A stretch of DNA of 64,000 nt from Bacteroidota bacterium (GTDB taxonomy: Bacteria > Bacteroidota > Bacteroidia > Bacteroidales > GCA-2748055): positions 3,684 to 67,683 of the forward strand of contig JBMOLL010000053.1 in the NCBI GenBank assembly GCA_049325415.1, in the 5' to 3' direction. Position numbers and translations under genes: made by a program. Below the pieces are notes generated by a model. That model ran no database searches. It was not told the DNA's origin and saw only the letters and a list, made by a program, of their open reading frames with translations. Shown piece by piece: positions 13,047 through 41,332 of this stretch; positions within the stretch are counted from its first letter, which is position 1, and every line of letters starts with the position of its first letter.

Positions 13047-13082
13047 TTTCCTATGAATTAAAATTTGCCATTTGATTCTCAT

Positions 13083-13160
13083 TTTCCCTCCACCGGCATT
13101 ACCCGGATCAGGTTCTAAGGGTATAATCTCAGCCCGTCGTATTAAGGCACCCCCTTAGAG
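13083..13160 (-). promoter_or_regulatory. TPP (THI-box) riboswitch
   Basis: The minus strand reads CUCUAAGGGGGUGCCUUAAUACGACGGGCUGAGAUUAUACCCUUAGAACCUGAUCCGGGUAAUGCCGGUGGAGGGAAAAU. It contains the conserved GGGGUGC, GCUGAGA, UACCC and ACCUGAUCnGGnUAAUGCCnGnG..AGGGA blocks of the THI element. It sits immediately 5' of the TonB receptor ORF. Confidence 0.9.
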
Positions 13161-13199
13161 AAGTATGGGGCGAAGGTAGGAAAAGTTTTTGAGATAGGA

Positions 13200-32520: not shown

Positions 32521-33333
32521 TCATTTATGTATTTTGTTTTTAATTTCTATCCACCGTTTTGTCCCAATCTCACTTATTTGTCTTTTTTTGGCAAAATCAA
32601 ATTCAATCCATGCTTTATGTGGATTTTCAGGAATTAATTTACCGTTTTTTATTTTGTCTTTAAGTGTATTATATGCTTCATGAAATCGCTTGTCATTCTT
32701 TGCAATATCATAAAATGACAAAACATAAACATAGTAAAACAGATTATATCGTAAAAATGGGTACTCTATTTTCATAAAAGTTGAACCAATCCCGAAGTTA
32801 CATGGGCCAATCGGCTGGCGAATTTCCCAATGTTGCAATAAAAAATCTACTCCTTTATTCAATTTGTCTATGTCGTCAGCAGAATTATCTCTAAATCGAA
32901 AAGCATCCAATACATATAAAGTTGTTCCAGGGTTGCTTGCATCAGTCAGTGGAGATTTTCCAAGTTTTACAGTCGCACATCTCCAACCACCATCATTCCA
33001 TTGAGTGTCAAGCATCCATTTGTAGCTTGTCTCAATCCTTATATCATTTTTTAAACCAAGTCTCCCTAATCCTGCTATTATCCGAGCTGTCAAACAAGGA
33101 AGTTTTGAGCTTTTGGGTGAATATTTAAAACAACCTTCCGGAGTTTGGTACGAGAAGATAAAATCAACGGTATCTGCAATCTCTGAATTATCATTAATCG
33201 AATAACCAATCTCTCCAAGAACTGATAAAGTATCAATGGTCGAAAATCCAAAGGGAGCGTGAATGTCTCCATCTGCTCTTGACCAAAATTGTCCACCATT
33301 ATCGTTTTGTCTTTGTAATATTTTCTCAATCAT
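32521..33333 (-). CDS. prenyltransferase/terpene-cyclase-like alpha-alpha toroid repeat protein (island paralogue)
   Basis: 270 aa. Q/N-x-x-DGGW-type repeats: QRQNDNGGQFW, DTQWNDGGWRC. It is colinear with 46488-47312: SNPGTTL, DGGW[RK]C, FPF[LF]RYNLFYYVY[VT]LSFY, ENPN/ENPH. Confidence 0.65.
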   Translation of the reverse strand: MIEKILQRQNDNGGQFWSRADGDIHAPFGFSTIDTLSVLGEIGYSINDNSEIADTVDFIFSYQTPEGCFKYSPKSSKLPCLTARIIAGLGRLGLKNDIRIETSYKWMLDTQWNDGGWRCATVKLGKSPLTDASNPGTTLYVLDAFRFRDNSADDIDKLNKGVDFLLQHWEIRQPIGPCNFGIGSTFMKIEYPFLRYNLFYYVYVLSFYDIAKNDKRFHEAYNTLKDKIKNGKLIPENPHKAWIEFDFAKKRQISEIGTKRWIEIKNKIHK

Positions 33334-33373: not shown

Positions 33374-33540
33374 CGCTAACTCCTTTATATGATCTCACCC
33401 CCCCTCCCACCTGCACCTCTCTCCCCCTCGCCGAGGTGATATTGAGTGCCTCATTCTCTTAACTGGCTTTTACCGGGTTGAGACCGCAATACAAGTTAAC
33501 CTTTAAGGGAAATATAAACAAGACTTTGCAGTAAAATATA
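33374..33540. repeat. island repeat A, copy 1
   Basis: CGCTAACTCCTTTATATGATCTCACCCCCCCTCCCACCTGC...GATATTGAGTGCCTC...CTTTTACCGGGTTGAGACCGCAATACAAGTTAACCTTTAAGGGAAATATAAACAAG. It is near-identical to 37041-37190 and lies 40 nt upstream of the start codon at 33333. Confidence 0.9.
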
Positions 33541-33735
33541 CGGGCGGAACGGCTGGCGATTCCGGGCTAAACGCCTTTTGAACCCACCTGGTAAAGGACA
33601 ATAACGAAGGTAACAAACTGTATAGCTGAAAATACCCCCCAGGCCAGCATTTTTTGCCAGGCTATTTTCTGCCCCGGGTTTAGTAATTGTTATACCATAA
33701 TGCAAATACCAACATTTAATCGTCTGCAGTACCGG

Positions 33736-34533: not shown

Positions 34534-34562
34534 ATGCCGGGCGGTTTACTTTTTTAATAATC

Positions 34563-34720
34563 TCCTCCCCACCTAACTCCCCAAGGAATTTTAATATTTC
34601 ATCGAATGCCATGTTGCGGGATGAGTTGGGGCGTACCTTTTCATACCCATGTCTGTTTCATTATATGTACGAAATTTCATTATAGACTGTAAACCAGCAT
34701 TGAACAGGACAATTTATTAT
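34563..34720. repeat. island repeat B, copy 1
   Basis: 158 bp. It aligns without indels to 35263-35420, an offset of exactly 700 bp. I counted 18 mismatches by hand. Confidence 0.9.
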
Positions 34721-34734
34721 TCCCGGTGGTTAAT

Positions 34735-35040
34735 TTATTTCTTCAAAGCTTTGGAATTTGAAAGAAGCCGTGAGCTATGATGAACTGTTAGAATATGAAT
34801 CGAATTCTCGTCAACAATTCTATATACTATCCTGTAACTCCCTCTGATTATTTGACGGAATGCTTCATCCTCAAATTCAGGAACCATAGGCCCTGCTTTT
34901 GGATGTTCTTCAAGAATATCAACACTTTCGAAAAGTTCAAGAACAGTTATCTCTGCATAACGCACAGAATCTTTAGCGATATAATCACCAATATCATTTA
35001 AATCATTGATAGCGTTGTCGGTCCAGACTATTTTAACCAT
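34735..35040 (-). CDS. type II toxin-antitoxin system RelE/ParE family toxin
   Basis: 101 aa. The pattern IVWTDNAINDLNDIGDYIAKDS...AGPMVPEF....FRQIIRGSYRIVYRIVDENSIHILTVHHSSR is typical of ParE/RelE. Confidence 0.8.
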   Translation of the reverse strand: MVKIVWTDNAINDLNDIGDYIAKDSVRYAEITVLELFESVDILEEHPKAGPMVPEFEDEAFRQIIRGSYRIVYRIVDENSIHILTVHHSSRLLSNSKALKK

Positions 35041-35216: not shown

Positions 35217-35262
35217 TGTGTTTCCTCAAATATACAAAATCAACGACTTAATATCAAAGAAC

Positions 35263-35420
35263 TCCTACCCACCTAACTCCCCCTGGAATATTAATATTTC
35301 ATCGAATGACATTTTGCGGGATGAGTTGGGGCTTACCTTTTCATACCCATGTCTGTTTCATTAAAAGAACAAAATTTCATTATAGACCGTACACCGGCAT
35401 TGCACAGGACCAATTGTTAT
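35263..35420. repeat. island repeat B, copy 2
   Basis: Direct repeat of 34563-34720. See copy 1. Confidence 0.9.
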
Positions 35421-36036: not shown

Positions 36037-36972
36037 TTAATTGCATATTACAAAACTGAAATCAGCCAAATTGTTATCAACTTCTACACTTGAAGGAAAA
36101 GGCAATTCCCATACACATATAGTTACAAGACTCGGCAAGAAATAAAGTGATAATTTCTCGAGATCTCTGCTCTGCGAGATATCTATTTCGTTAACATCAA
36201 AATATGAAACAGTCAATTCTTTTAATTCACTACAATTCGACAAATCCAATTCGGTGATATTGACCTGTGTGCCACCTACTAATAATTCCTTTAAATGAAT
36301 ATTCCTTGAGAAATCAATATTTGTAAGTGGAGCACCTATCTTTAGGATTTCTAAATTGATATTATTCGTAATATCCAATTCAGTTAATGCATAAGTCAAC
36401 ATTTCAAAACTATACAAGTTTATATTTGTCGAGAGATCAATGTTGGTAATATTTGTAAATCCGATGTTTAGATCTCGCAGATTCTTCAAGCCAATAATAT
36501 TAAGTGTATCAATCTCATTCAAACAACAATTTATATATTCCAATTTGATATTATGAGATAGATCAATTGTCCCTTTTATACCACTGTCATAACACTTTAA
36601 ATATTTCAACTTGGGATTACTACTTAAATCTAAAGGTCCATTGATCTTATTATTACTGCAATCAAGGAAGACTAGGTTAACAAAGGCCTCAATGCCTGTC
36701 AAATCTTCAATTTTACCGAAGTTAGAAAGTACATTTTGGTGATCGAAAAGATTCAAACTGTCAACTACTTCTGCTTCCTGGAAACTGATTTCACAATCGC
36801 AATCTGAATCGTATCCAGCTGCAATCAGTTTTTCTTTAAAATTTGCATCTGGTATTGGCACATGGTATCCAGGGATAAATACAGTTCCTTCGGTGCATTT
36901 CTCTTCTAATTTCTCGCAAGAAATTATAGATAACAAAATGAAGATTATGTATGTACGAACCTTAATTCTCAT
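36037..36972 (-). CDS. leucine-rich repeat lipoprotein
   Basis: 311 aa with lipobox LLSIISCEK. The N-terminal cap IPDANFKEKLIAAGYD is followed by about nine ~22-aa LRRs of the form LxxLxLxxNxIxxIDLSxN. Confidence 0.8.
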   Translation of the reverse strand: MRIKVRTYIIFILLSIISCEKLEEKCTEGTVFIPGYHVPIPDANFKEKLIAAGYDSDCDCEISFQEAEVVDSLNLFDHQNVLSNFGKIEDLTGIEAFVNLVFLDCSNNKINGPLDLSSNPKLKYLKCYDSGIKGTIDLSHNIKLEYINCCLNEIDTLNIIGLKNLRDLNIGFTNITNIDLSTNINLYSFEMLTYALTELDITNNINLEILKIGAPLTNIDFSRNIHLKELLVGGTQVNITELDLSNCSELKELTVSYFDVNEIDISQSRDLEKLSLYFLPSLVTICVWELPFPSSVEVDNNLADFSFVICN

Positions 36973-37040: not shown

Positions 37041-37190
37041 ACCTAACCTATTTATATGATCTCACCCCCTTCCCACCTGCATCGCTATCCCCCTCGACGG
37101 GGCGATATTGAGTGCCTCCTTCTCTCAACTGACTTTTACCGGGTTGAGACCGCAATACAAGTTAATCTTTAAGGGAAATATAAACAAGCC
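37041..37190. repeat. island repeat A, copy 2
   Basis: See copy 1. It lies 68 nt upstream of the LRR gene start (36972). Confidence 0.9.
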
Positions 37191-37584
37191 TTCCCGGGAA
37201 AAACTGCAGGAGGCGATGCGGGGGATTACGGGGAGGGACAGGAGGGAGGGGGCGGTTCTGACCAGCCAAAATCCAGAGAATGCAGGATTTACCCCAATAC
37301 ACCCTGGATTAGTTTTGATTTTTACAAAACACGGGAGGCCGAAGGCCTACAGACAGCAGAGGAGAAAAATAAAATGAGTACACTCCAGGTAATCCGGAAT
37401 AAATTAACCGGGAGAGCTTTTGCTGTTGGTAAACGCCAGACCCCTTATGTCGGTCTGAGTAAATTTGCAGCATAATTTTTTCTAAAAAATTTGGTTTTGC
37501 CATAGAACAGTTTTAGCTGCTGCCGTGCTGTTTCTCTGCAAACATAGGGCTCCATGTTTGCTCAGCTGCTTGCATAAGCGGTAG

Positions 37585-38352
37585 TCATGATGCACTATAT
37601 CTTGCAATTGCTACGCTGATGTTATCAATGCCACCACGCCTATTTGCAAGTGAAATTAAGTCGTTCGCTGTTTTGTAAATATTGCCCTTTACTGTTTTTA
37701 TAATCTCTTTCTCGTCAACCATACCATATAAACCATCACTACAAAGCATTAATGTTTCATCATCTATTTCTTGCTCGAAAATATCAGGTGTAACAGTTTC
37801 GGATAGGCCAAGTGCCTTAGTCAAAATATTTCTTCGTGGATGATTGATAGCTTGTTCTTTAGTGATTATTTTATTGTCCAACATTACTTGAACGGCTGAA
37901 TGATCTTTGGTAATTTGTCGGAGTGATTTATTAGGATTAATTATATATGCTCTTGAATCGCCAACATTAACAATATATATGTGATTGTCAACAATAATTG
38001 CACCAACTAAAGTTGTTCCTATATTTCCTTGTTGATTTTCTGATATTGCCCAAACCTCTTTATTTGCATCTTTTACGGCTTTAGTCAGAACATTTTCAAA
38101 TTTTATTGTGTCATTAATTGATGTGTAATAAAAAATGCTTTCAGCAACTGATTCAATAAATTTTTTTGCAGCAACTTCAGAAGCAACTTCTCCTTTTTTA
38201 AGTCCACCCATACCGTCAGCAACAACAAGAATTCCATAGTTGACTTCGTTTCTAAAACTTTGTGAATTTAAAATTAATGACGCAACACTATCTTGATTGG
38301 AAGTTCTCTCCTTGCCAATGTCTGTTTTCGTATAAAGTCTAATTGGTAGCAT
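37585..38352 (-). CDS. PP2C-family Ser/Thr phosphatase (catalytic domain only)
   Basis: 255 aa. Motifs: TDIGKERTSNQD, VVADGMGG, GTT, NVGDSR, LCSDGL, GGIDNIS. Confidence 0.9.
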   Translation of the reverse strand: MLPIRLYTKTDIGKERTSNQDSVASLILNSQSFRNEVNYGILVVADGMGGLKKGEVASEVAAKKFIESVAESIFYYTSINDTIKFENVLTKAVKDANKEVWAISENQQGNIGTTLVGAIIVDNHIYIVNVGDSRAYIINPNKSLRQITKDHSAVQVMLDNKIITKEQAINHPRRNILTKALGLSETVTPDIFEQEIDDETLMLCSDGLYGMVDEKEIIKTVKGNIYKTANDLISLANRRGGIDNISVAIARYSAS

Positions 38353-38374
38353 TCTCCTATTGTTAGAAATTTCA

Positions 38375-39202
38375 CTAAGATAATTTTTGATAAATTGGTT
38401 TTAGTGTGTCTATTACTTGTTGCATATTTTGGTATCTTTCGTTTACATTAATCTTAATCATCTTGAGAATTGCAGTATCAAGTTCGGAAGAAATAGATGA
38501 ATGATTTTGAGAGGATGGAGTTGGAACTGTATAACTCTGTCCGTTATTTTCATTAAAAACTTGAGGAAGTTTTCCTGTCATCATTTCATAAAATAATACA
38601 CCTAAAGAATAAATGTCCGTTCGCTGGTTTACTTCGCCAAATGCAGACGGATGAAACCATTGCTCAGGAGAACAATAGCCAGGAGTTCTCCACATTCCTG
38701 CAACTGTCAATGCGATTGATTCTCTGTTAACATCTTTACCGATTCCCCAATCAGCAACTTTAATTTGATTTTGTTCAGTAAATAAAAGATTAGCTGGCTT
38801 AATGTCTCTATGATAAATATTTTCTGAATGTGCCAATTTTAAAGCTTCTGCAACAGGAAGTATCACATTTCCCAATGTCCATTTTTGAGAAAAAAGTTTT
38901 TTTTGTTCAACAATAATGTTAACCATTTTGTCTTTTAAAGACCCACCAGCCATGTATTCCATTACATACCATGGACCATAATTTGGTGGATTGCCGTTTA
39001 TATTTGACTCGAAAATATTAACAACATGAGTATGATTTAGAGATTGAATAATTTTAATTTCTCTTTCAAATCGTTTTATCCTTTCAGGGTCTGGGCGCTT
39101 CAATTCCTTTAAAGCGCCTCTTTGCCCCGTCGCAGATTGAACTTCATATACCTTTCCGAATCCTCCTTCGTCAAGTATTCTTATAATATTCCAAGTTGCC
39201 AT
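38375..39202 (-). CDS. Hanks-type Ser/Thr protein kinase (catalytic domain only)
   Basis: 275 aa. Motifs: EGGFGKVY (P-loop), GALK (VAIK Lys), HRDIKPANLL, DWG in place of DFG, and CSPE (APE). Confidence 0.9.
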   Translation of the reverse strand: MATWNIIRILDEGGFGKVYEVQSATGQRGALKELKRPDPERIKRFEREIKIIQSLNHTHVVNIFESNINGNPPNYGPWYVMEYMAGGSLKDKMVNIIVEQKKLFSQKWTLGNVILPVAEALKLAHSENIYHRDIKPANLLFTEQNQIKVADWGIGKDVNRESIALTVAGMWRTPGYCSPEQWFHPSAFGEVNQRTDIYSLGVLFYEMMTGKLPQVFNENNGQSYTVPTPSSQNHSSISSELDTAILKMIKINVNERYQNMQQVIDTLKPIYQKLS

Positions 39203-39225
39203 GAGTAGTTAAATATTTATTGTGA

Positions 39226-39633
39226 TTAATTGTTTGTCATTTGTCTTACTTCGTTTGGGTTAACGAAGCCAGTAAGATGGTCTGTCTGTTTAATTTCTTT
39301 GTATCCCAAGTGTTTTGATATTTCATACAGCAAATTTAGAAAACGCATATCATATACTTTAGGGTCAAAAAGTGTTGAATTCTGACTCTCCCACAACTTT
39401 TCCTTTGCATCCATTATTTTTTTATCGTTATAAAAAATAACATCCATTATATTTAGAGCGTCCAAAATCTCATCATTCATTCTCATTTTTTTTCTTTGGG
39501 TTAGAAGCGTCAGAAATAGGTCTGTCTTTTGTCTCTTCCTTTCCCTTCTACTATTAATTACTAACGAAACTAGCATGGCAGACGTTGGCCCTGCAACAAT
39601 TGCACATATCGCTATAATTACTGGTGTCGTCAT
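39226..39633 (-). CDS. single-pass membrane protein with helical C-terminal domain (possibly DUF6680-like)
   Basis: 135 aa. An N-terminal TM helix (PVIIAICAIVAGPTSAMLVSLVI) is followed by the basic RRERKRQK and then helical blocks: LFLTLLTQRKK, ILDALNIMDVIFY, LLYEISKHLGY. The family assignment is from memory only. Confidence 0.5.
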   Translation of the reverse strand: MTTPVIIAICAIVAGPTSAMLVSLVINSRRERKRQKTDLFLTLLTQRKKMRMNDEILDALNIMDVIFYNDKKIMDAKEKLWESQNSTLFDPKVYDMRFLNLLYEISKHLGYKEIKQTDHLTGFVNPNEVRQMTNN

Positions 39634-39876
39634 TGTTTTATATATTACTTAACAAAGTTAAAAACTAAAACCTTCATTCCGTCCATATTTTTTGTTACAA
39701 TCATTTCATTTCTTTCAAATATTATAAAGTTAGCAGTGTTCTCCAACGGTTGCAGCAAACGTACCAGCGGTATTTGCAGTGCTGGTTTCAAAGCTCTTAC
39801 CTTTCAAACTGCTATTTGCTTCATTAATTCACAAAATTATAAGATCACTAGGACACCCGCATTGCTTATGACCGTG

Positions 39877-40767
39877 TTAGTGGCTGGTTTTCTTGCTTTC
39901 ATAAAAATCATCAGTATAAGAATAATGAATATTTTGTCCTGCTATATCTTCATTTAAATTGTATAATCTAGGTTTTATCTTATCGTCAATATAAAGCTTG
40001 TCATATTCATTTTTCAGCCATAGATATTTATTGTAGATGTTGGGATTTTCAAAACTATTATCTAGTCCATTAATAATAGTCTTTTTTACTCTAGTAAGAC
40101 CTATTTTTAGTCTTCTTTCGCTCATCTTTTTCCAAGATTGAAGAACCTCAAAATAAATCATTTGGTGGAATCCAACACAACCGTCACTAAAGCGCTTAAT
40201 GTATTGATGATAAGGGTATCTGTCTCTTTTTGTTGTAATTGGGTAATTTAAAAGCTTAAGCAATTTATCTGACAAAAGAATTCTTGGAAAACTAGCTGCT
40301 TTAGATTCTAGCTCATAAGCATCAATTAATCCTTGTCCAAATATTATCCCATTATCTAAATGTATGGTTCTTCCAGTTGTAATTCCACCTCTAAAAAGTA
40401 TTCCCTTTGTCATTAATCTAGCACCAACTAATGAAAGGTTTGCAATCAATGTTGATAATGTTTCATTAATTGTAGATTTATCATAGCCAACTGAAACCGC
40501 AATTGAATCTGAAAAAGAGGTACAAGCAGTTCTATTTGAGATGTCAAAATCTTCCAAATTTCTCTTTTGAGCATCCTCTTCTATTTCGATAAGTTGTAAA
40601 TCCCAATTTGAAGCATACTCTCTCTTTTTTAGAAAAACTAAAGAATCATAAATTAATTTTCTTGTGTCTGCATTTCTTTCTGATTTCTTTACAACTTCTT
40701 TGAAACCTAAAATATCAATGAATGCAACTAACCTTTCTTCATATATTATTTCATCATATGATTCCAT
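39877..40767 (-). CDS. stand-alone class-III nucleotidyl-cyclase/GGDEF-like palm-domain protein, function unknown
   Basis: 296 aa. Ordered motifs VAFIDILGF, TSFSDSIAVSV, ILFRGGITTG, GQGLIDAYELES, RILLS mirror the class III cyclase motifs FxD[IL]xGF, GDxxxA, RxG[IL]xxG and VNxAxRxE. The C-terminal ~100 aa have no recognisable motif. Confidence 0.6.
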   Translation of the reverse strand: MESYDEIIYEERLVAFIDILGFKEVVKKSERNADTRKLIYDSLVFLKKREYASNWDLQLIEIEEDAQKRNLEDFDISNRTACTSFSDSIAVSVGYDKSTINETLSTLIANLSLVGARLMTKGILFRGGITTGRTIHLDNGIIFGQGLIDAYELESKAASFPRILLSDKLLKLLNYPITTKRDRYPYHQYIKRFSDGCVGFHQMIYFEVLQSWKKMSERRLKIGLTRVKKTIINGLDNSFENPNIYNKYLWLKNEYDKLYIDDKIKPRLYNLNEDIAGQNIHYSYTDDFYESKKTSH

Positions 40768-40805
40768 ATCAGCTTATTTTTATTATCATCGTGGTGTCAA
40801 AATTA

Positions 40806-40963
40806 CCGCTAACCTATATTTATAAGTGCCCCCAACTCCCCACTCCACCCCCCAAAGGCGATATCCCAAACACTTCCTGATCTTTTCTGGCTGGCCGGGT
40901 TGAAGCGGCTATACAAGTTAGAACTTAACAAAAACAAAAACAAGCCTTTACAGCAAAATTACG
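40806..40963. repeat. island repeat A, copy 3 (diverged, at island/backbone junction)
   Basis: CCGCTAACCTATATTTATAAGTGCCCCCAACTCCCCACTCCACCCC...GGCGATAT...CCGGGTTGAAGCGGCTATACAAGTTAGAACTTAACAAAAACAAAAACAAGCCTTTACAGCAAAAT. It lies 38 nt upstream of the start at 40767. Confidence 0.75.
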
Positions 40964-41332
40964 ACCTGGTTTGGCTGTTTTGAGGGCCGTGGATGGAAGC
41001 GGGGCGGGAAATGACCGCCTGCAGGGGGCTGAAAATGCCCTCCGGGTAAGGGCGGAAAGGCTTCGCCGGACAGCCGGCCCTTCTCCGGAGGCTTCTGCGG
41101 CTGCACGGGAGTCAAAAGACAGATCCCGGGCGTTAAAAGATACTTCCTCAATGCCAAAAGATACTTTTCGATTGCCATAAGATGACTTCCGATCCATTTC
41201 GGATGGTTTTCTTAACCGCCAAGTGGGTATTCAGCGGCCCGGGTAGTATCCGGCTGTTAACCTGTTCTTCAGTTCTCCGGATACGACATAGCGGGTCGGG
41301 TAAGCGCCTTAGCACATGCGGCTGTTCGCGGC

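Follow-up and report, generated by a model that had tools for sequence, protein, structure and literature searches.

The 64,000-nucleotide (nt) stretch analysed here (the window), part of contig JBMOLL010000053.1 of a Bacteroidota bacterium of the order Bacteroidales (assembly GCA_049325415.1), contains an AT-rich island in which four minus-strand genes stand in a row. We read these genes, at a probability of roughly 0.6, as two independent mobile conflict modules that happen to be neighbours in an island made up of toxin-type cassettes. Module 1 is a single gene for a protein of 296 amino acids (aa) which, judged by its sequence, is a solitary member of the known PanT toxin family. Module 2 is a triad of genes encoding a 135-aa membrane protein of the DUF6680 family, a 275-aa Hanks-type Ser/Thr kinase and a 255-aa PP2C phosphatase; by analogy with characterised systems, this triad is probably an undescribed phosphorylation-based toxin/antidote or phage-defence switch. 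An earlier note on this DNA, made from the letters and the translated open reading frames (ORFs), had associated the cyclase-fold product of module 1 with the triad as one candidate signalling system. Its account of four co-oriented minus-strand genes was exact in coordinates, sizes and gaps (243, 23 and 22 nt, from the 296-aa gene to the PP2C gene; Table 1), and all of the motifs that it quoted are found in the translations.

Module 1 is related to the phage toxin PanT

The 296-aa protein was compared with PanT (YP_293707.1) of the Burkholderia prophage phi52237 by aligning an 82-sequence profile with hhalign, which gave a probability of 99.9% and an E-value of 1e-34 over 237 columns (residues 7-256), and by BLASTP of the two proteins, which gave an E-value of 2e-21 at 29% identity. 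On these alignments the homology is secure, and the protein, part of which had been taken as unrecognisable, can be assigned to a toxin family with a validated member. The phi52237 pair of PanT (gp8, YP_293707.1) and PanA (gp9, YP_863932.1; accession confirmed in the phage record) was validated by Kurata et al. (2022; PMC8832971), with PanT being toxic in Escherichia coli and neutralised by direct binding of PanA in a complex. In the same work, PanT was found to inhibit transcription most, followed by translation and then replication, to trigger RelA-dependent ppGpp without depleting ATP, and to be cyclase-like by HHpred prediction at 97% (PMC8832971). Homologues were detected by tblastn of phage genomes in six P2-like Burkholderia phages. 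In two of these, phiX216 and phi52237, the gene adjoins the integrase and attP, and the gene of a 157-aa SocA/Panacea (DUF4065) antitoxin (8e-18) is located 3 nt upstream.

PanT and the 296-aa protein match in all conserved blocks, share the same predicted cyclase fold and are both encoded on mobile elements. They differ at their ends, PanT having a 42-residue N-terminal extension which is missing from the 296-aa protein and the latter having an extra conserved C-terminal tail (residues 257-296) which is missing from PanT. This tail is conserved in the Bacteroidota clade only, within which H281 is invariant and G277, N279 and I280 are at least 90% conserved.

The 296-aa protein is laid out as a class III cyclase-fold domain (residues 1 to ~170), a family-specific helical domain (~175-256) and the tail. 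An AlphaFold2 model built from 82 diverse homologues reached a predicted local distance difference test score (pLDDT) of 94.3 and a predicted TM-score (pTM) of 0.91; it supersedes a model from 31 close homologues with a pLDDT of 68.7 and a poor C-terminal half. When the 82-homologue model was searched against the PDB with Foldseek, the best 47 matches were all class III adenylyl/guanylyl cyclases (top E-value 1.8e-4), as were all 50 matches listed for the 31-homologue model. TM-scores reached 0.65, on the catalytic domain of Rv1900c. The Pycsar synthases of cUMP and cCMP (7r65 and 8jsf) are among the matches, and GGDEF and Cas10 structures rank only below the class III cyclases. A Foldseek search of viral structures returned palm-domain matches and nothing further. 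The protein as modelled therefore has the class III cyclase fold, which bears out the cyclase/palm fold that had been proposed from its motifs (VAFIDILGF, TSFSDSIAVSV, ILFRGGITTG and GQGLIDAYELES).

Conservation over the 82 diverse homologues is complete for R126, G127, G144 and E154 and at least 90% for D18, D87, H136, R162, D195, K247 and W250. A profile search of PDB sequences retrieved adenylyl cyclases at sub-threshold level only (E-values of 0.7-1.5), and with a sequence search, too, cyclases stayed below threshold. In the profile alignment FIDILGF falls against FADIVGFT of 1yk9, placing D18 on its metal-binding Asp, and GpAlieAYelES falls against GDAVNVASRMES, placing I148 and E152 at the Asn and Arg of helix alpha-4. 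The catalytic blocks that had been recognised from the sequence are thus present in part: the metal-binding Asp pair (D18/D87) and the RxGxxxG block are retained, whereas the VNxAxRxE-type Asn and Arg, the transition-state NxxxR of helix alpha-4, are absent from the 296-aa protein in the profile alignment. Because the Asn and Arg are replaced though the Asp pair is kept, the 296-aa protein is not a canonical cyclase. No Pfam family was matched at E <= 0.1 and no NCBIfam or PADLOC model was matched, those for Guanylate_cyc and PycC included, and two PHROG families of unassigned function were hit (phrog_23933, 9e-31; phrog_21097, 5e-16).

The wider PanT-like family and its partner genes

Among cluster representatives at 50% identity the family numbers 5,895 members at E <= 1e-3 and 1,307 at E <= 1e-10, and a word-indexed search with the 296-aa protein returned 650 homologues. 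They are spread over Bacteroidota, prophages, plasmids and restriction-modification operons, and the family is without a Pfam, NCBIfam or PADLOC model. In IMG/VR there are 69 viral-contig loci with a homologue, several of them adjoining an integrase or standing just before the small terminase gene, and 12 plasmid records also carry one.

The genes found beside family members differ from branch to branch. A Panacea partner is present only in the Burkholderia-type loci (L068, L127 and L130). In L159-L161 and L169, an XRE-type HTH_3 gene lies upstream of the family member with a gap of 3 nt. On viral contigs, the upstream gene encodes a ParA-like AAA_31 ATPase of 347-374 aa and overlaps the PanT-like gene (L139:3912-4982, L140:496-1620 and L162:3931-4974); this pairing of a ParA-like ATPase with a PanT-like gene is recurrent and is undescribed for the toxin family. 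In L170:1310-2029 the hsdS and hsdM genes of a type I restriction-modification operon flank the PanT-like gene, at distances of 1 and -8 nt, an arrangement that recalls abortive infection (Abi) genes embedded in restriction-modification loci, and in L021 a family copy comes after a Type ISP enzyme.

The 109 immediate neighbours of 61 genome copies of the family were scanned with Pfam and PADLOC. The commonest Pfam domain was N6_Mtase (5 neighbours), followed by MmeI (3), Eco57I (3), GmrSD (2), HamA (1) and RhuM (1). As N6-methylases make up about 0.1-0.3% of genes on a rough estimate, 5 in 109 is a large excess. PADLOC matches among the same neighbours were to restriction-modification, PglX, mad3, NsnA and PD-T4-2 models.

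The Bacteroidota clade which includes the 296-aa gene has no conserved partner gene. No Panacea (DUF4065) domain was found in any ORF flanking 39877-40767 or adjacent to family members of this clade, and the small ORFs around the 296-aa gene have no Pfam match. A hidden antitoxin was also considered and rejected, since clustering of ORFs of at least 25 aa together with blastn of the 500-nt flanks revealed nothing conserved in 49 loci of the clade.

Module 2 is a recurrent triad with an exchangeable membrane partner

The DUF6680 protein has one N-terminal transmembrane (TM) helix, followed by the basic stretch RRERKRQK and a helical part. Conservation among triad-linked homologues is highest in the TM helix, and the basic stretch after it predicts, by the positive-inside rule, a cytoplasmic location for the helical domain. 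The translations of the kinase (GGFGKVY, ALK, HRDIKPANLL and DWG) and of the phosphatase (DGMGG, NVGDSR, CSDGL and GGIDNIS) contain the motifs of their families, and the profile search found catalytic domains only, with no other domain in either; the description of one TM helix with its basic stretch beside two bare enzymes was therefore accurate. Over 14 aligned members of the kinase family the GGFG loop, the ALK lysine and the HRD motif are kept and DWG in place of DFG is invariant. In the PP2C the metal-binding Asp motifs are intact and invariant in the family. Both enzymes look catalytically competent on these residues.

Of the PADLOC models, the kinase matches PD-T4-6 at 4.5e-52 (PDLC04042, 10-274 of 292 profile positions), mad6 at 3.5e-51 and Stk2 at 1e-24, and all NCBIfam kinase models stayed below their cut-offs, the best of them being PknB-like. 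The PP2C scores 232.1 bits against the NCBIfam Stp1/IreP model, whose cut-off is 230, and its PADLOC matches at E <= 0.1 were PDC-M21C (3.7e-12) and a marginal HamA, with nothing else. With the Stp1/IreP cut-off just passed and a PknB-like model as the best kinase match, the kinase-PP2C pair descends from housekeeping-type enzymes.

Triad-type DUF6680 homologues are ~135-143 aa long and 41-96% identical, and all of those whose context was checked are followed by the gene of a 274-275-aa kinase and that of a 254-267-aa PP2C. The proposal that the small membrane protein, the bare kinase and the bare PP2C form a unit is therefore upheld, the same combination recurring with DUF6680 proteins at 41-44% identity in differing surroundings. 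The triads of L062-L067 adjoin AbiGi, a Zeta toxin, HigB with a helix-turn-helix (HTH) protein, and an IS91 transposase. L106 and L107 are two triads on one metagenome contig of 16,969 nt, one of them adjoining an IS110 transposase, and the triad of L108 adjoins a HEPN protein with an HTH protein and an Eco57I-type methylase. A further copy, L183, shows 92% DNA identity to 39650-37513 of the window, with the homology starting at 39650; only 17 nt of its contig precede the DUF6680 gene, and no upstream neighbour is visible.

A search based on the kinase recovered 37 metagenome loci. In every complete locus with a kinase at least 51% identical, the PP2C gene follows the kinase gene within about 40 nt or overlaps it. 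The upstream gene varies by locus. It may encode DUF6680, a TM-containing zinc-ribbon protein (L084) or a 2-TM protein, and in other loci there is nothing recognisable. The 2-TM protein, of 126-139 aa and unrelated to DUF6680, stands 3-11 nt before the kinase gene in L072-L075, and across both kinds of partner, DUF6680 or 2-TM, the gaps to the kinase gene are 3-33 nt. Since the pair is constant and the upstream gene varies, the kinase and the PP2C are the core of the module and the membrane partner is exchangeable. Literature searches returned no paper on DUF6680 or PDC-M21, and neither DefensePredictor nor a domain-centric screen mentions the protein family.

The two modules occur independently of each other

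To survey linkage, the triad proteins were searched by tblastn in 61 genome loci with a 296-aa homologue and their 7-kb flanks. Neither DUF6680 nor the PP2C was present in any of them (0/61 each), and a kinase was present in 2/61, in one case (L060) at a distance of 5 kb from the homologue. Clustering of neighbouring ORFs in the 61 loci gave no conserved neighbour of the 296-aa gene, nor was the triad a recurring neighbour in the 69 viral loci (0/69). The closest relative (L184, 82% aa identity) matches the window from 40771 to 39875, that is over the coding sequence (CDS) only, ending within 4 nt of the CDS ends, and in L184 the PanT-like gene is followed by one for a SEC-C-motif protein. The triad in turn is found without the cyclase-fold gene in L062-L070 and L106-L108, at least four other contexts. 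As there is no co-occurrence and no conserved neighbour, and as L184 shares the CDS only, the 296-aa gene is not part of the triad. The earlier note had itself held that a failure of the genes to co-occur elsewhere would refute its unit, and the survey showed such a failure for the cyclase-fold gene.

The spacer between the modules contains three matches to TAnnTTTG, the Bacteroidetes -7 promoter box (39653-60, 39756-63 and 39832-39), the one nearest the triad standing 19 nt before the start codon of DUF6680. Because this box is not enriched over the window (37 found, 32 expected), the matches are suggestive of an independent promoter region for the triad and go no further. A sigma-70 promoter scan was set aside as uninformative in a Bacteroidota genome. 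The hairpins with T-runs downstream of the PP2C gene probably mark the end of the triad operon, and they count for little in the argument since the terminator consensus scan found 4 sites where 3.2 were expected.

The surrounding island

The four-gene locus belongs to a 33% GC island in a genome of ~52% GC; the GC content of the island is 0.32-0.42, against 0.48-0.59 in the flanks, and with its ParE gene it is the AT-rich, toxin-antitoxin-bearing island that had been described. A profile search of ten island proteins likewise agreed with the earlier description in finding no cNMP-binding, TIR, SAVED, CARF or vWA domain.

The island is all on the minus strand and is partitioned into gene segments by two intergenic direct repeats, R1 and R2, of 160-200 nt and 75-89% identity, and all four genes fall in one R1-bounded segment (Table 1). 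R1 and R2 have the look of promoter or junction sequences that recur between cassettes. An integron cassette array was considered and rejected, as both repeats fold no better than shuffled sequences (z -0.7 to +1.9), unlike the imperfect palindromes of attC. No integrase was found among the genes on the cyclase-gene side of the island, no tRNA gene was detected in the island search, and Rfam gave no match in the four-gene region.

Table 1. Positions in the window of the two modules and of the features around them
Feature	Position	Strand	Basis or remark
Module 1, 296-aa PanT-like protein	39877..40767	-	ORF, AlphaFold2, Foldseek, hhalign
Spacer between modules	39634..39876	-	243 nt, three coding-strand TAnnTTTG matches
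Module 2 gene 1, DUF6680, 135 aa	39226..39633	-	Pfam PF20385, 2.1e-22
Module 2 gene 2, Hanks-type Ser/Thr kinase, 275 aa	38375..39202	-	Pkinase 1e-43, residues 6-262
Module 2 gene 3, PP2C phosphatase, 255 aa	37585..38352	-	PP2C 4.8e-17
Two terminator-like hairpins with T-runs	37336..37401	-	184-249 nt downstream of PP2C stop codon; probable operon end
ParE toxin gene	34735-35040		same island as the four genes
Repeat R1, intergenic	33376-33566; copy b 37043-37232; copy c ~40790-40959		repeat search and alignment
R1 copy b	37043..37232		between PP2C gene and leucine-rich-repeat gene; downstream bound of segment
R1 copy c, more diverged	40790..40959		directly upstream of 296-aa gene, at edge of AT-rich island
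Repeat R2, intergenic	34562-34720 and 35262-35420		brackets ParE/antitoxin pair

Some further observations concern single features of the window and of a related assembly. This other assembly of the same element has the DUF6680 gene annotated at just 84 aa (L185:9494-9748). Its contig runs a short way past the PP2C gene and stops near the place of R1 copy b in the window, which suggests an assembly break at the repeat. Two other island proteins are a leucine-rich-repeat protein of 311 aa (36037-36972) and a protein of 270 aa (32521-33333, minus strand) with a weak, sub-cut-off likeness to the alpha-alpha toroid of squalene-hopene cyclase and prenyltransferase (2.5e-5). In GC-rich DNA immediately outside the island edge there is a tandem pair of 21-nt units, 76% identical (41106-41147), and the stretch around it has low-complexity ORFs only, without a Pfam match. 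A TPP riboswitch is located at 13068-13164 on the minus strand (Rfam RF00059, 61.4 bits against a gathering score of 54.3).

Comparison with known systems

The closest experimental precedent for module 2 is KKP, the PfkA/PfkB/PfpC system of Pf prophages (Guo et al., 2024; PMC11341870), in which two kinases together act as toxin and a PP2C acts as antitoxin, and in which inhibition of the phosphatase by a phage replication protein leads to defence. The defining components of KKP are a PP2C and a pair of kinases, of which one has a CSD domain and the other an FHA domain (PMC11341870). The triad resembles it as a three-gene mobile module of Hanks-type kinase and PP2C with toxin-antitoxin (TA), restriction-modification and transposon neighbours. 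It differs in having one bare kinase without CSD or FHA domain, a small membrane protein in place of the second kinase, the gene order membrane protein, kinase, phosphatase, and a kinase that was not found in viral contigs. Membership of KKP was rejected on the single kinase and the missing CSD and FHA domains.

A second comparison is with TerY-P, which the account of Anantharaman et al. (2012) and Gao et al. (2020) summarised in PMC11090510 describes as a vWA protein and a PP2C together with a kinase fused to a zinc ribbon or OB fold. Both are three-gene units of a kinase, a PP2C and a non-enzymatic third partner in defence contexts, but the triad has no vWA protein, its kinase has no C-terminal zinc ribbon or OB fold, and its third gene encodes the one-TM DUF6680 protein. 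Membership was rejected, the defining domains of TerY-P being absent from the ten island proteins.

PD-T4-6 of E. coli, for which PADLOC has a model, and Stk2 of Staphylococcus are Abi systems of a single kinase, with a promiscuous kinase as effector as is proposed for the triad; unlike the triad, they are single-gene systems without a dedicated phosphatase or membrane partner. The idea of a system without a name is correct for the DUF6680 and cyclase-fold proteins, neither of which has a PADLOC model, and it is less apt for the kinase, which PD-T4-6 models do match, if unspecifically, so that part of the cluster falls under an existing defence model. Membership of MADS was discarded, as the kinase scores 133 bits against the NCBIfam MAD6 cut-off of 460 and no other mad match was found among the island proteins. 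The triad is plausible as a new variant of the kinase/phosphatase conflict modules.

Alternative explanations

The triad could instead be an ordinary regulatory module of the Stk1/Stp1 type, with DUF6680 as an anchor or sensor and a role in envelope or growth control and not in conflict. We consider this unlikely, though it has the Stp1/IreP equivalog score of the PP2C and the PknB-like best match of the kinase on its side. The more distant DUF6680 proteins (156-165 aa) also fit such a role, being stand-alone genes without a kinase in ordinary-looking neighbourhoods, as does the finding that searches of viral contigs and plasmids recovered no relative of the kinase. Against it, the triad is placed in an island of low GC content beside ParE and a PanT-like toxin, and its copies elsewhere have AbiGi, Zeta, HigB, HEPN, methylase and IS91/IS110 neighbours and once occur twice on one contig. 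The exchange of the membrane partner between unrelated families is a hallmark of conflict systems. Moreover, the kinase falls far under the PknB_PASTA_kin cut-off (165 against 450 bits) and has no PASTA or TM segment, and on these grounds a PASTA-type Stk1/Stp1 housekeeping kinase was rejected.

We regard it as quite improbable that the 296-aa protein makes a signal in the manner of Pycsar or Panoptes, with a cyclic nucleotide as its product and, as the target, a host receptor or an effector encoded at another site in the genome. With PycC and the class III cyclases it does share the fold of the catalytic domain, with 7r65 and 8jsf among its matches, as well as the conserved Asp pair and the RxGxxxG block, but it differs from them in the Ile and Glu that replace the alpha-4 Asn and Arg of the transition state and in the extra conserved C-terminal helical domain. 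Unlike in Pycsar, no cNMP-binding effector stands beside its gene and no effector co-occurs with the family. The PycC models of PADLOC give no match, and since there is no Pfam match whatever, the protein is not mCpol; membership of Pycsar or of mCpol/Panoptes was rejected accordingly. Finally, the homologue PanT kills E. coli without a cognate effector and is neutralised by direct binding of its antitoxin (PMC8832971).

The reading of all four genes as one system, with an alarm nucleotide from the cyclase-fold enzyme that acts with or through the switch of membrane protein, kinase and PP2C, has adjacency on one strand within one R1-bounded segment, a spacer free of terminator-like sites and the Hanks-type kinase directly after a homologue in L024 in its favour, but it is largely refuted by the missing co-occurrence and very improbable, as the triad lives without the cyclase-fold gene elsewhere, the closest homologue shares the CDS alone, the triad proteins have no nucleotide-binding domain, the spacer has candidate promoters of its own, and a PanT homologue that is toxic by itself in E. 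coli (PMC8832971) argues against an alarm nucleotide feeding a partner.

The division into two modules, which we prefer, has to be held against several observations that weigh in the other direction. The modules share one inter-repeat segment, the consensus scan found no terminator-like site in the 243-nt spacer, and the two may be co-transcribed in this genome. In a Saprospiraceae genome (L024:7001-9611), a 512-aa Hanks-type kinase gene lies directly downstream of the PanT-like gene, without a PP2C or DUF6680, and this is the sole case of a kinase adjoining a family member among the 61 genome loci. For module 1, the canonical catalytic Asn and Arg are missing. For module 2, the association with defence islands comes from only about four independent contexts, no relatives of the kinase were found in viral contigs or plasmids, and the kinase-PP2C pair might signal rather than kill. 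The PD-T4-6 match of the kinase is not proof of membership either, because models of this system also match the housekeeping kinase of all Streptococcus thermophilus strains (PMC11514479).

Proposed mode of action

Under the reading of two separate modules, module 1 would be, by homology, a growth-arresting effector, the one family member that has been studied shutting down transcription first and translation second. Its relatives elsewhere would be restrained by an adjacent Panacea protein, XRE-type HTH protein or ParA-like ATPase, whereas the solitary Bacteroidota protein may be self-inhibited and released by a trigger such as phage infection. In module 2, by analogy with KKP, the kinase would be a promiscuous toxic effector and the PP2C its antidote. 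A phage protein that blocks the phosphatase or activates the kinase could then be the trigger, resulting in hyperphosphorylation and growth arrest. The DUF6680 protein may anchor or activate the kinase at the membrane, or may itself be a membrane effector gated by phosphorylation.

Taken jointly and at its most specific, the proposal is a tentative one, and we would put the odds against it. The triad would be an undescribed anti-phage or Abi system in which the PP2C guards a bare promiscuous kinase and a swappable DUF6680 or 2-TM protein is the phosphorylation-gated effector or sensor, and the solitary Bacteroidota PanT-like proteins would form a very large family of self-regulated single-gene Abi toxins with a non-canonical palm chemistry.

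Significance

There are few phosphorylation-based immune or TA systems, namely KKP, TerY-P and Stk2, and if the proposal for module 2 is true, the triad adds a compact modular type to them. Switches of this kind would then be open to direct tests of their input or output through the swappable membrane partner. The position of the two modules also calls for caution in annotation, in that adjacent cassettes of a toxin island should not be merged into one system. Through module 1 the validated toxin PanT is tied to a very large family which lacks a domain model, and for working out what the cyclase-like domain does there are now many more sequences, a structural model of high confidence and a form that is solitary by nature.

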